Shown piece by piece: positions 5,281 through 15,666 of a stretch of 16,656 nt of DNA. Each line of letters begins with the position of its first letter. The stretch's first letter is position 1. The position numbers and the translations under genes were made by a program. The stretch is from Okeania hirsuta (GTDB lineage Bacteria > Cyanobacteriota > Cyanobacteriia > Cyanobacteriales > Microcoleaceae). The stretch lies in NCBI RefSeq assembly GCF_003838225.1, contig NZ_RCBZ01000114.1; one strand, given 5' to 3'. The notes under the pieces were generated by a model. It saw only the letters and a program-made list of their open reading frames with translations. It did not search any database and was not told the DNA's origin.

Positions 5281-5310
5281 AGTAGTCAGTAGTCAGTAGT
5301 CAGTAGTCAG
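5281..5310. repeat. Heptanucleotide tandem repeat (AGTAGTC)x4, STRR-like
   Basis: Directly visible: agtagtcagtagtcagtagtcagtagtcag. Confidence 0.9.
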
Positions 5311-5462: not shown

Positions 5463-5520
5463 AATTATTTCTCCCTACTCCCCTACTCCCCTACTCCCTG
5501 CTCCCTACTCCCTACTCCCT
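5463..5520. repeat. Hepta/octanucleotide tandem repeat (CCCTACT/CCCCTACT) x~7, STRR-like. The same unit recurs at 10901-10917 and 11062-11080.
   Basis: Directly visible: ctccctactcccctactcccctactccctgctccctactccctactccct. The reverse complement shares the AGTAG core with the 5281-5310 array, so the two arrays are imperfect inverted repeats. Confidence 0.9.
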
Positions 5521-5630
5521 AAATTGGGATTAATCAACCCATTAGCCGTACCAAAAAGATTAATTGGACTCTTACCATCAGTAATTAAAACACTCTGAAG
5601 ACCAAGCCCCTACAACAACCTCGCCTGCAT

Positions 5631-7267
5631 TTATGGGCCAGCTTGAGCGATCGCCCGAATTGTCTCAGCCCCCAAAGCCTCCACTTTTTGCTGAAACTCA
5701 GTAGCAGTAATTTCAGCCATTTGCCTTGCCTTCTCAATCTCTAAATTATTCAGTGTCTGCTGATGGGCTAACTCAGTCTCCTGACGCGCCCTCAACTGAG
5801 CCATCTCAGCCTCATGGCGAATCCGTGCTGCTTCTACTTCCTGCTGCGCCAAATTCACCGCCAACTGGCCTTGAAAAGGAGATAACATATAAGCTTGAGG
5901 TCCATTGACTAATTTTAGTTCCCCACTTTGAACATCCCGTACATATATACCTTCATTTTTGTCTAGGGGAATAGCCTGAAGTTTTTCTAATACTTCTAAT
6001 TCCACTGGGGGAATATAATCTCTTGGCCCAGTAATCATCCATAAATCTCCTGGTTGCCGAGTAATAACGTTTGCTCCTGTTCCCTCGGTGAAAGTTTCCT
6101 CAACTCTGATTAGGAGTGCTTCTTGTTCACCAAGAATATAGACCTTTTTAATTCCTGTTTCTAAATCTTCTCCTGGGTGCAAAAAGAAAGATGTTCTGCC
6201 CTGACGCACTTCTTTCATACCCCACTGCGGTTTACCATCTGCATCTATGGGATTAGTTACTATGCACCATTCGCGATCGCTTAAAGTAGTGATTTTGACT
6301 TCTCCCACTACTTCTTCATAAACGTCGGGAATATGAATTTCAGCATCTGCAAAAGTAACTAACTATTCATATCCCGCTTTGCGTTGCTGACCAAAAATAT
6401 CAGTAAAAGTCCGTTTTGCTTTTAGATGTAGTGCTTGACGTTCGGTTAATACATAGGCATCAATAGTATCGACAATTTCTTCATCTACTCCAGGCAAATA
6501 AGCACCTTCTTCCCTGACCAACCATTATTCCCCAGTTCTACGTCTGTTACCTTGACGATCTATACAATTTTGTCGTGCCAGCAGTCGTAAGGCTTGGTTA
6601 GGTTTAATTATTTTAGCTATAACTGTGACTACCACTTCAACTTCTACCCTGGGAGTGTAAGTTCCTGGCCCCTCAAATAACCATTCATCCCCTGTCGTAC
6701 GAGTGACAGTTTGAGACTCTCCTGCAACGATAACTGTATCAGTAAAATCTCGTATTGCTTTGAGACGTAGAGTTTGGTTTGTGTCAATTACTTGTAGTTG
6801 AGTTACATCTTCTTCGAGTATTTCTCCTGGATATAGTGGGAAAGGGTCTTGAGCAAAGCGAATTTCCAGATCGCCATATTTGAGTCTAATTTAACCATAC
6901 TCATCGGCCACAAGTTGATCTGAACTATAGCAATGTGCGCTGGCATATTTACACATTATTTTTTGTACACCTTTTCTAAAATGCACTTTGAACTGGGCCT
7001 TGTAAATACCTGAGCGCTCATTGCTATATTTCTTAGTACAGGGTTAGCTGCTACACAATAATGGCGAGGTGGAACTACAATTGTCAGTTGTGGTTGTCAG
7101 ACTAACCTTTCTGCATCTCCAAGGGTAATGGTTTGAGGGCCTATTTCTAGTCTGATAACACCAGTGTTATTGTCAAGAACATGAATATACTGTTGTGGCT
7201 TCAGGAGAATTATACCATTGTTCTCTATTGTAATTGGATATTCTGTGGTACTTTTTATTTTACTCAT
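5631..7267 (-). pseudogene. Major vault protein (MVP)-like gene, decayed: four in-frame stops, one frame-breaking insertion, an internal deletion and a C-terminal truncation
   Basis: My manual minus-strand translation from the ATG at 7267 gives MSKIKSTTEYPITIENNGIILLKPQQYIHVLDNNTGVIRLEIGPQTITLGDAERLV*QPQLTIVVPPRHYCVAANPV... After the insertion it continues ...[88 protein letters not shown]...RRTGE*WLVREEGAYLPGVDEEIVDTIDAYVLTERQALHLKAKRTFTDIFGQQRKAGYE*LVTFADAEIHIPDVYEEVV and runs in frame into the tracked ORF 5631-6308 (...AIPLDKNEGIYVRDVQSGELKLVNGPQAYML...). These stretches align colinearly with human MVP repeats 1-7 as recalled from memory ([27 protein letters not shown]; [17 protein letters not shown]; [21 protein letters not shown]; TGEEWLV; AIPLDENEGIYVQDV) and with the extreme cap-helix end (IGPSTIRDLAVAGPE vs LGAETIRAIAQAGP). 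The stops are TGA at 7099-7097, TAA at 6893-6891, TAA at 6527-6525 and TAG at 6365-6363. Confidence 0.8.
6928..7026. mobile_element. MITE-like ~95 bp insertion inside the MVP-like pseudogene, with terminal inverted repeats GCAATGTGCGCTGG / CTGAGCGCTCATTGC and TA flanks
   Basis: The MVP frame is frame 0 upstream and shifts by 2 downstream. The intervening ~95 bp (length ≡2 mod 3) has no MVP counterpart and is bounded by 15/17-matching inverted repeats. Its ends (TATAGCAATG) resemble those of the 1670/15743 element (TATAGCAGTCG). Confidence 0.55.
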
Positions 7268-7330
7268 AGTTTAATAGTTTTGTAACTAGAAATCTTAAGT
7301 TATTCATTATCCATTATTAATTATCTCTTA

Positions 7331-10021: not shown

Positions 10022-10471
10022 ATGAGCCATGAAATAATAGCAATTAGGAGACCTGTTAGACCAAAACAGCCTATTGAGCCAAATTCTCCAAAGGAGGCGC
10101 TTCACGAACAAATTGAGTCAAAAGTAGAAAAACCAAATTCAATAAAAAATAGCCCCTCATCAAGAACAGAAGGTACGAATGAAAGGCAATTAGGAAAACC
10201 AATAAGTAAATCAGAAAGACCCAAAAAACCAGGAAAACCAAAGCTAAAAGAATCTATCCAACAAGTCACCAATGCTAACGGAAAAGTTTTTAGTTCGGGG
10301 GATAAGATTTTAGTATCAGCACCCTGGAGTAGTATTGTAGAAGCTGAAATTACGGGTTTTTATAAAAGTCCTGGAGGTTCAATCTGGGCAATTTTTCTTC
10401 CCCAAGAATCTCTACCTAAGTGGAAGTGGGAAAAAGGTTGCATCCGAGCTGAATTATTAAAACAAGCATAA
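10022..10471 (+). CDS. Hypothetical protein: Lys/Pro-rich low-complexity N-terminal half and a small Trp-containing C-terminal domain
   Basis: 149 aa ORF with ATG at 10022 and AGGGAG 13 nt upstream. No recognisable family. The antisense 72 aa ORF is hydrophobic junk. Confidence 0.45.
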   Translation: MSHEIIAIRRPVRPKQPIEPNSPKEALHEQIESKVEKPNSIKNSPSSRTEGTNERQLGKPISKSERPKKPGKPKLKESIQQVTNANGKVFSSGDKILVSAPWSSIVEAEITGFYKSPGGSIWAIFLPQESLPKWKWEKGCIRAELLKQA

Positions 10472-14334: not shown

Positions 14335-15666
14335 CTAATTGCTTGATTTACTCAAATCTACATAACCATACAAATCGTAAACATCTGCATCTGTAATCAT
14401 CACTGGCACAATTGAACCCAAACGAGCTTTACCTTGGAGATAAACAAGTCCATCCACTTCTGGAGAAAACCGTGGTGACCTACCAATCAACTCTCCTGTC
14501 TGAGGATTTTCCTGTTCAATCAGTACATCAACTACTTGTCCCACTGATTTTTGATTCTGTTTTCCAGATATGGGCTGCTGGACTTGCATAATTTTTTCTC
14601 TACGGGTGTCCATCACTGCTTTGGGCAACTGATTAGGCAAACTATAGGCGGGGGTTCCTTCTTCTGGAGAGAAAGTAAATACCCCAACATGATCGAACTC
14701 GTGACGCTTGACAAATTTCACTAAATGTGCATGATGATCTTCCGTTTCACCAGGGAAGCCCACTATAAAGGTTGTCCGCAACACGGCATTGGGCATAGCT
14801 GCTTTTATTTTTTCGATTATATCATCATTAACCCGACCTTGCCAAGGTCTATTCATGGCCCGCAATATTTGGGGATGAGAATGTTGTAAAGGCAAGTCTA
14901 GATAGGGTAAAATATTGGGAGTTTCTTGAATAGCAGCTATTACTTTGGGAGTCAAACCTGTAGGATAGGCATAGTGCATTCTAATCCAGGGTATATCAAC
15001 TTTTCCTAGGGCGCGGAGAAGTTCGGCGAGTTTGGGTTCGCCATAAATATCGATTCCATAGTTAGTGGTTATTTGGGAGATGAGGATGATTTCTTTTACC
15101 CCTTGGTCTGCTAGTTGTTGAGCTTCAGTGACAATAGATTCTATGGTGCGCGATCGCTGATTTCCTCGTAGATGAGGAATAATACAAAAAGCACAACGAT
15201 AATCACAACCTTCAGCTATTCGCACATAAGCAACTCCTTCGGATGTGGTGCGGTAACGTGGGGTTGTTTCATCGGCAATATAGGTGGGTTGAGGGGAGAC
15301 TTCTGTGACGCGATCGCCTTTTTCTACCCGTTGCATCACATCAACTATTTTATGATAATCACCAGTCCCCACAAGTGCTACTGCTTCTGGTAACTCTGCA
15401 AGTAATTCTTCTTGGAAGTGTTGCGCCATACAACCTGCGATGACTATTTTTTTGTTAGCTTCTGCTAATTCTACCAAAGTACGAACAGATTCTTCTCTGG
15501 CAGTTTGAATAAAACTACAGGTGTTAACGACTACATAATCTGCTAATTCTTCGTTAGCATCTACTTGATAACCCGCTTGTGCTAGTAAACCTATGATATG
15601 TTCGGTATCGATACGATTTTTTTCGCACCCTAAGTGAGAGAATGAAATGGTAGGTTTTGTAGACAT
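14335..15666 (-). CDS. rimO: Ribosomal protein S12 methylthiotransferase RimO (radical-SAM MTTase with TRAM domain)
   Basis: 443 aa. The N-terminal MTTase domain (FSHLGCEKN…NTCSF) is followed by the radical-SAM CDYRCAFC motif and a C-terminal TRAM domain. ATG at 15666. Confidence 0.9.

Follow-up and report, generated by a model that had tools for sequence, protein, structure and literature searches.

We analysed a stretch of 16,656 nucleotides from the cyanobacterium Okeania hirsuta (contig NZ_RCBZ01000114.1 of assembly GCF_003838225.1; hereafter the window), in which a homologue of the gene for the major vault protein (MVP) lies on the minus strand between a kinase-WD40 gene and a Tmemb_14 gene. 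The gene order kinase-WD40, MVP, Tmemb_14, DUF815, TerB and thioesterase is the same in the window and in Okeania sp. SIO3I5 (locus L002), and the window copy is therefore the positional (syntenic) orthologue of the SIO3I5 gene. The neighbouring genes are all intact. The MVP frame itself holds six premature stop codons, a miniature inverted-repeat transposable element (MITE) and a deletion of 316 codons, and its upstream region is largely lost (Table 1). The region is very probably a recently inactivated, neutrally decaying pseudogene, orthologous to the cyanobacterial MVP gene and belonging to the O. hirsuta group. The DEAD-box helicase encoded in the window is identical to a protein recorded for Okeania, O. 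hirsuta included. Exact-protein look-up of the neighbouring kinase-WD40 open reading frame (ORF) returned no match; the same look-up with the DEAD-box helicase and TerB gave matches.

Several relatives serve for comparison. Intact MVP copies persist in Okeania SIO3I5 and in the assembly with locus L001, further copies are found in Okeania SIO2F4 (L044) and in Dapis BLCC M229, and a sister lineage of the window (L053) is 99.3% identical to it, differing at 14 positions over about 2 kb. The ancestral codons at the premature stops were taken from these Okeania and Dapis relatives.

Table 1. Features of the putative MVP pseudogene and its flanks, in window coordinates
Feature	Position	Strand	Description
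Whole MVP ("colicin uptake protein") pseudogene	5505..7267	-	ATG at 7267 to original stop TAG at 5507-5505
Upstream spacer	7268..7330	-	63 bp from kinase-WD40 stop to MVP ATG; 845-1146 bp in relatives
Stop 1	7097..7099	-	TGA from TTA (Leu; Phe in rat), T>G at 7098; window lineage only, TTA in L053
MITE	6928..7026	-	99 bp, terminal inverted repeats of ~26 nt; duplicated TA at 7028-7027 and 6927-6926
Stop 2	6891..6893	-	TAA from CAA (Gln); common to L053
Stop 3	6525..6527	-	TAA from GAA (Glu); common to L053; GAA in L001, L002 and L044, AAA in Dapis
Stop 4	6363..6365	-	TAG from TGG (Trp); common to L053
In-frame length difference of 165 nt	6150..6169 (about 6162/6161)	-	55-codon partial duplication in L001, L002 and L044; without it in the window, L053 and distant cyanobacteria
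In-frame deletion of 948 nt (316 codons) versus L002	junction 5875..5876	-	hybrid TTT codon left; common to L053
Stop 5	5631..5633	-	TAA from GAA (Glu); window lineage only, GAA in L053
Stop 6	5610..5612	-	TAG from GAG (Glu); common to L053
Heptamer array	5471..5521	-	TAGGGAG x7 (minus) or CTCCCTA x7 (plus); supplies the final codons (...LGSRE) and the MVP stop codon

A degraded member of the MVP family

The frame was reconstructed by taking out the 99-bp element together with one flanking TA copy (101 nt); six premature in-frame stops are then followed by the natural stop. The conceptual translation contains the Vault repeat domains by which the MVP family is recognised, namely PF01505 (Vault) in four stretches (1e-60), PF17794 (Vault_2; 1.7e-34) and PF17796 (Vault_4), the last as a partial match covering positions 1-30 of 63. 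It matches rat MVP with an E value of 2e-159. With eukaryotic MVP (rat and human; PDB 4V60, 7PKZ) it shares a collinear alignment, with 53.5% identity to the rat protein over 402 aligned residues (repeats R1-R8) and 45.7% over the 116 residues of the C-terminal segment; it differs in that rat residues ~411-734 are without counterpart and that the frame is not open. A preliminary description, made from the window sequence by itself, had put the identity to metazoan MVP at about 50-60%.

Homologues at E <= 1e-20 numbered 2585 in a database search. The best 120 of these are all full-length (860-932 aa), with Vault, Vault_2, Vault_3, Vault_4 and MVP_shoulder domains; those with a named source are nearly all from filamentous cyanobacteria, under the labels 'colicin uptake protein' or 'major vault protein'. 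Closest among the homologues listed are two intact proteins, P0001 (924 aa) and P0002 (926 aa, the protein of the SIO3I5 locus), with 88% and 85% amino-acid identity over aligned columns, and nucleotide identity to the intact orthologues is about 88%. The window copy is thus orthologous to and syntenic with the MVP homologues of Oscillatoriales annotated 'colicin uptake protein' (P0002 of Okeania sp. SIO3I5; Moorena producens 3L) and has the same Vault repeats and C-terminal tail (that of L001; the SIO3I5 tail differs). Unlike them, it carries six stops, a MITE frameshift and the 316-codon deletion, and has lost its upstream region. That cyanobacteria have MVP homologues more than 50% identical to the eukaryotic protein has already been described (Daly et al. 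2013, PMC3762200; Sokolskyi 2019, bioRxiv 10.1101/872010); formation of vault particles by these proteins is not established in either work.

Four of the six stops (stops 1 to 4 in Table 1) had been reported in the preliminary description. They were found at exactly those positions in the minus-strand MVP frame, and alignment with rat MVP bears out the residues named for them (F of ERVLF, Q of GQVRL, the second E of TGEEW and W of GEEWLV). The list was incomplete in that it missed the TAA and the TAG nearest to the end of the gene (stops 5 and 6). The most upstream stop corresponds to codon 57.

Length changes were mapped by a reference-anchored global alignment of the window copy to the intact L002 coding sequence, which resolved three ungapped blocks at positions 0-1005, 1170-1456 and 2404-2753 of the latter. 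The 948-nt deletion takes out the equivalent of rat residues ~411-734; by the published rat domain boundaries we take the lost part to comprise the final repeats, all of the shoulder and the beginning of the cap-helix. Because of this deletion, PF17795 (Vault_3) and PF11978 (MVP_shoulder), present in all of the best 120 homologues, are missing from the window translation. An uninterrupted ORF of about 870-930 codons, as expected of the family, is not found, the frame being broken by six stops and a frameshifting insertion of 101 nt. The segment underlying the 165-nt difference is a partial duplication (...KEVRQGKTSFF...; nucleotides 1005-1170 of the L002 coding sequence) flanked by direct repeats TTT(A)GAAACAG(R)AATT. 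Its lack in the window may reflect ancestral absence or deletion, and the segment was perhaps never present in this lineage. Upstream of the gene only about 25 bp next to the ATG can still be aligned to relatives, about 0.8-1.1 kb having been lost, and this deletion probably removed the native MVP promoter. The preliminary description had reasoned that, with sense codons at its four stops, the gene would be intact but short and interrupted by the MITE only. This does not hold, since the 948-nt segment, with the shoulder and part of the cap-helix, and the upstream DNA are gone; even with sense codons restored at the stops the gene would not be intact.

The insertion at 6928-7026 adds 101 nt and shifts the MVP frame by +2 after codon 80; its removal restores the frame. 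That it is real and a MITE, as first described, is corroborated by its short, non-coding sequence, its inverted repeats, the TA duplication, empty sites in relatives and dispersed copies. The arms are 81% complementary over 32 nt, flanks included, and the hairpin has a predicted energy of -32.6 kcal/mol. In L053 and L044 the site is empty, with a single TA and no element. The terminal repeat was found in 108 metagenome stretches, among them 35 full-length copies at 31 distinct flanks; on these metagenome contigs 34 of the 35 are bordered by TA...TA. No further copy was present in the cyanobacterial loci fetched, and copies were seen in the metagenome scan only. A duplicated TA target is what Tc1/mariner-IS630-type elements typically leave. 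The window element resembles known TA-duplicating MITEs in its length, its inverted repeats, the lack of an ORF, the TA duplication, its many copies and the empty site in a sister genome. It differs from them in that no autonomous partner was identified, a search for a transposase-bearing element with these repeats not having been made, and in that the family was not assigned to a named MITE. The locus shows an active TA-targeting MITE family.

The heptamer tail of the window copy is also found in the intact L001 gene, the tail of Okeania SIO3I5 being different; a short repeat array thus appears to have replaced the C-terminal end of MVP in part of the genus Okeania. A second heptamer array (AGTAGTC x4.3 on the plus strand) lies at 5281-5310.

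Order and timing of the lesions

Three further GenBank assemblies (L048, L051, L052) match the window with 100% identity over the 1851-bp region from 7300 to 5450. The sister lineage L053 shares four stops with the window (6893, 6527, 6365 and 5612), as well as the deletion of 948 nt and the shortened upstream spacer; it is without the MITE and without the stops at 7099-7097 and 5633-5631. On this agreement between assemblies the lesions are real and not errors of sequencing or assembly. A sequencing, assembly or synthetic artefact, behind which the gene would be intact apart from the MITE, had been among the first suggestions. Its probability is negligible, given the three identical assemblies, the recurrence of four of the six stops and of the deletion in a lineage that differs at 14 of ~2000 positions, and the intact state of all neighbouring genes, barring a contaminated read source common to all of these assemblies.

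The partial sharing with L053 means that the lesions accumulated stepwise. Four nonsense substitutions, the in-frame deletion of 948 nt and the loss of upstream DNA were already present in the common ancestor of L053 and the window; after the split, the window lineage gained two further nonsense substitutions and the TA-targeting MITE. Homology, synteny, the lesions with their reproducibility and their relative order are observed, and which lesion came first of all we infer.

Selection was assessed by the ratio of non-synonymous to synonymous substitution rates (dN/dS; Nei-Gojobori, stop codons excluded). For MVP it is 0.16 between the window and L002 (dS 0.38), 0.14 between the window and L001, and 0.20 between the intact L001 and L002 copies; five flanking intact genes, compared between the window and L002, give 0.22-0.38. 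Between the window and L053, both pseudogenes, it is ~1.2, from only 12 changes (8 non-synonymous, 2 synonymous and 2 nonsense), and a divergence of this kind fits neutral evolution as far as so few changes can tell. Since dN/dS against the intact orthologues is 0.14-0.16, nearly all of the divergence arose under constraint, and the inactivation appears to be recent. Of the explanations offered in the preliminary description, it is recent inactivation that gains support here, the values against intact copies being no higher than that between two intact copies. The proposed course is that purifying selection acted on the gene for almost all of its divergence from the intact Okeania orthologues, after which function would have been lost and lesions gathered step by step. 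The well-preserved sequence reflects recency, not continuing function, and we infer that no MVP product is made from the pseudogene.

Continuing function, by read-through or recoding of the stops or by separately translated fragments such as the 225-aa piece, is highly improbable. It would be in keeping with the high amino-acid conservation around the stops, with the in-frame nature of the large length differences and with the fragments of 56, 36, 52 and 225 aa that gene callers predict. Records from 6 contigs list the 225-aa fragment as a 'hypothetical protein' of Okeania, and its counterpart in L053 has 232 aa, a difference that comes from GAA in place of stop 5. High conservation, however, is explained by recency. 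All three types of stop codon occur among the lesions, neither a tRNA gene nor an Rfam element was found within the 16.6-kb window, the MITE shifts the frame, and the shoulder and much of the cap-helix are missing. Under read-through the stops should be kept across lineages, with purifying selection downstream of them; instead two of the six are absent in L053 and dN/dS between the two lineages is ~1.2. A change of the genetic code was rejected, because the window, read by the standard code, holds long unbroken ORFs and the kinase-WD40 gene next to the pseudogene terminates with TAG.

Two further differences between the window and its sister genomes were noticed. At two sites on the minus strand (7159-7154 and 6734-6729) the window lineage has GTTATC where L053 has GTCACC. 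These two hexamers are the only copies on that strand of the shared locus, and the double C>T accounts for 4 of the ~9 changes specific to the window; one GTCACC at 14479 has stayed the same, as have three GGTGAC sites elsewhere. Deamination directed to the motif at a methylated site is one possible explanation, coincidence another. The otherwise near-identical assemblies L051 (10541-11266), L052 and L053 have a 726-bp non-coding block between TerB and the thioesterase gene, in which tandem repeats of roughly 170-190 bp can be made out by eye; the window (2255/2256) lacks it.

Weight of the nonsense codons

Lineage-specific substitutions were polarised by four relatives. The window lineage shows about 75 changes (38 synonymous, 31 missense and 6 nonsense), distributed 22:18:34 over the three codon positions; the nonsense count comprises five strict cases and the stop at 6527, where Dapis has AAA. 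Random substitution of the inferred ancestor produces a stop in 4.5% of cases if the spectrum is uniform, in 5.3-5.7% with the spectrum of the lineage and in 8.3% with that of the terminal pseudogene branches. The observed 6 of ~75 (8%) would not be abnormal provided that every change had been neutral, but most of the changes date from the constrained phase. We fitted a two-phase Poisson model with the missense to synonymous ratio of the intact lineages (33:46). The neutral phase then comprises ~32-36 substitutions, from which 2.0-2.7 stops are expected. The high ratio of nonsense to missense changes remarked on in the preliminary description is thus reproduced in the window lineage taken alone (likelihood-ratio test for a stop excess, nominal p 0.0046-0.0185).

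In the other decaying copies, stops make up 1 of 15 non-synonymous changes in Okeania SIO2F4 and 0 of 11 in Dapis, and the three decaying lineages pooled have 7 stops among 63 non-synonymous changes, which is unremarkable (p 0.18-0.55). The stop finding was, moreover, selected because of its stops and is subject to ascertainment.

Base composition and mutational spectrum contribute as well. Owing to the many Gln and Glu residues of the protein, C>T (13.5%) and G>T (16.3%) are the classes of change most prone to create stops, and five of the six stops are G/C>A/T changes, largely because of the genetic code. Transversions of the type G:C>T:A account for 14 of the 75 changes in the window lineage versus 3 of 79 in intact lineages (Fisher p 0.004) and include three Arg>Leu changes at conserved arginines; part of this excess may be transversions that selection purges in intact genes. 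An altered mutational spectrum was rejected as the full explanation, since with 8.3% stops the p value of the lineage alone is still 0.0185. Strand-biased mutation, which had also been proposed as a cause of the stops, was rejected too: G>T and C>A on the coding strand stand at 10:4 over the whole branch and at 2:3 on the two terminal branches, without consistent bias.

The stops would be ordinary single-base substitutions. They would be prominent since the neutral phase was short (~30-36 substitutions), with slight missense and indel decay as a result, since a Glu/Gln-rich protein has many codons one step from a stop, and since G/C>A/T changes, G:C>T:A transversions included, are common among the changes of the pseudogene. 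Three observations weigh against simple neutral decay, namely the excess of stops in the window lineage, the lack of any small indel versus L002 in 1640 aligned nt, and the fact that both large length differences (948 and 165 nt) are in frame. They are compatible with a short neutral phase, chance and ascertainment, and are not positively explained by them. The nonsense enrichment as such is nominal, and the brevity of the neutral phase, together with composition, mutational spectrum and ascertainment, accounts for it adequately.

Parallel decay in Okeania and Dapis

In Okeania SIO2F4 the MVP copy is broken by a separate stop at codon 9, by a 1-nt deletion and by an insertion in which a reverse transcriptase (RVT_1, 8.6e-29) is encoded along with a TnpB-like protein (Cas12f1-like_TNB, 4.7e-23). 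In Dapis BLCC M229 the start codon is changed (ATG>ATC), and the copy shows a different deletion of ~1.4 kb and a 4-nt insertion. With intact copies persisting elsewhere in Okeania, the MVP gene is evidently dispensable in the Okeania/Dapis clade. The SIO2F4 element sits after an Okeania-specific insert (L044 ~1320-2557, L046 1-60), with a contig break inside the element; it is possibly a group II intron that bears, or lies next to, an IS605-type element.

A rival reading is that silencing was itself selected. Loss of MVP, or of an assembly-incompetent deleted protein, would then have been advantageous, with several null alleles favoured and combined by recombination or by successive upstream truncation, so that stops became enriched relative to neutral missense changes. 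Such adaptive silencing we consider improbable. It would accommodate the finding that the gene was inactivated three times independently in Okeania and Dapis, the nominal nonsense excess in the window lineage (p 0.005-0.02) and the fact that the most upstream stop (codon 57) is also the most recent one; the in-frame 948-nt deletion could at first have given a truncated protein. The other recent stop (5633), however, is placed downstream of everything else and cannot have been selected, the two other decaying lineages show 1 and 0 stops and the pooled set has no excess, the finding was chosen for its stops, and simple relaxed selection would predict parallel loss just as well. Were silencing nonetheless selected, MVP would be actively disadvantageous, and not merely dispensable, in these marine filamentous cyanobacteria.

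Recent inactivation followed by neutral decay makes the window copy an ordinary young pseudogene of a known gene family with a MITE insertion. It resembles young bacterial pseudogenes of genomes rich in repeats and mobile elements in being a syntenic homologue of an intact gene, with several independent lesions and a mobile-element insertion, and is unlike them in a mix of lesions skewed to nonsense, with no small indels so far; the dN/dS of ~1.2, from 12 changes, would agree with neutral evolution since inactivation. Pseudogene-rich genomes occur among the relatives, Trichodesmium being an example. A scan of the genome collection by exact peptide words returned neither the genome of the window itself nor a Trichodesmium locus, and its word requirement allows no statement on that genus. 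Loci reached through the helicase variants of Okeania SIO1I7 and KiyG1 were non-syntenic and without MVP.

Some observations concern the wider distribution and setting of the gene. Candidatus Parabeggiatoa, Thiomargarita and a metagenome-assembled genome of Anaerolineae (L038, L040, L041) have MVP homologues with 65-67% identity to the Okeania protein, and a metagenome-assembled genome labelled Actinomycetota has one with 70% identity (P0078). Either transfer between phyla among large filamentous bacteria or binning errors would account for them. The GC content of the MVP pseudogene is 0.415 and that of the intact orthologues 0.44, compared to ~0.32-0.34 for the neighbouring genes and the locus; the part of L002 corresponding to the deletion is GC-richer still (0.47). 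The higher GC of the MVP gene is not by itself evidence of a foreign origin, because the DEAD-box helicase of the window is similar (0.43). No Pfam family matches a 149-aa ORF on the plus strand of the window (10022-10471); the ORF is situated where the AT skew is strong (0.30) and is called as a gene at the equivalent position in the Okeania loci L048-L051 and L053.

Taken on its own, this single locus matters little, being one more young bacterial pseudogene. It offers a clean, small example of how decay starts, in which the order of lesions is dated: the deletion and four stops came first, two stops and the MITE followed within ~0.7% divergence. Together with its relatives it shows that the eukaryote-like MVP gene of filamentous cyanobacteria has been lost repeatedly and independently in the Okeania/Dapis clade, which argues for its dispensability there. 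Sister strains with intact and broken copies are natural comparisons for the function of bacterial MVP.

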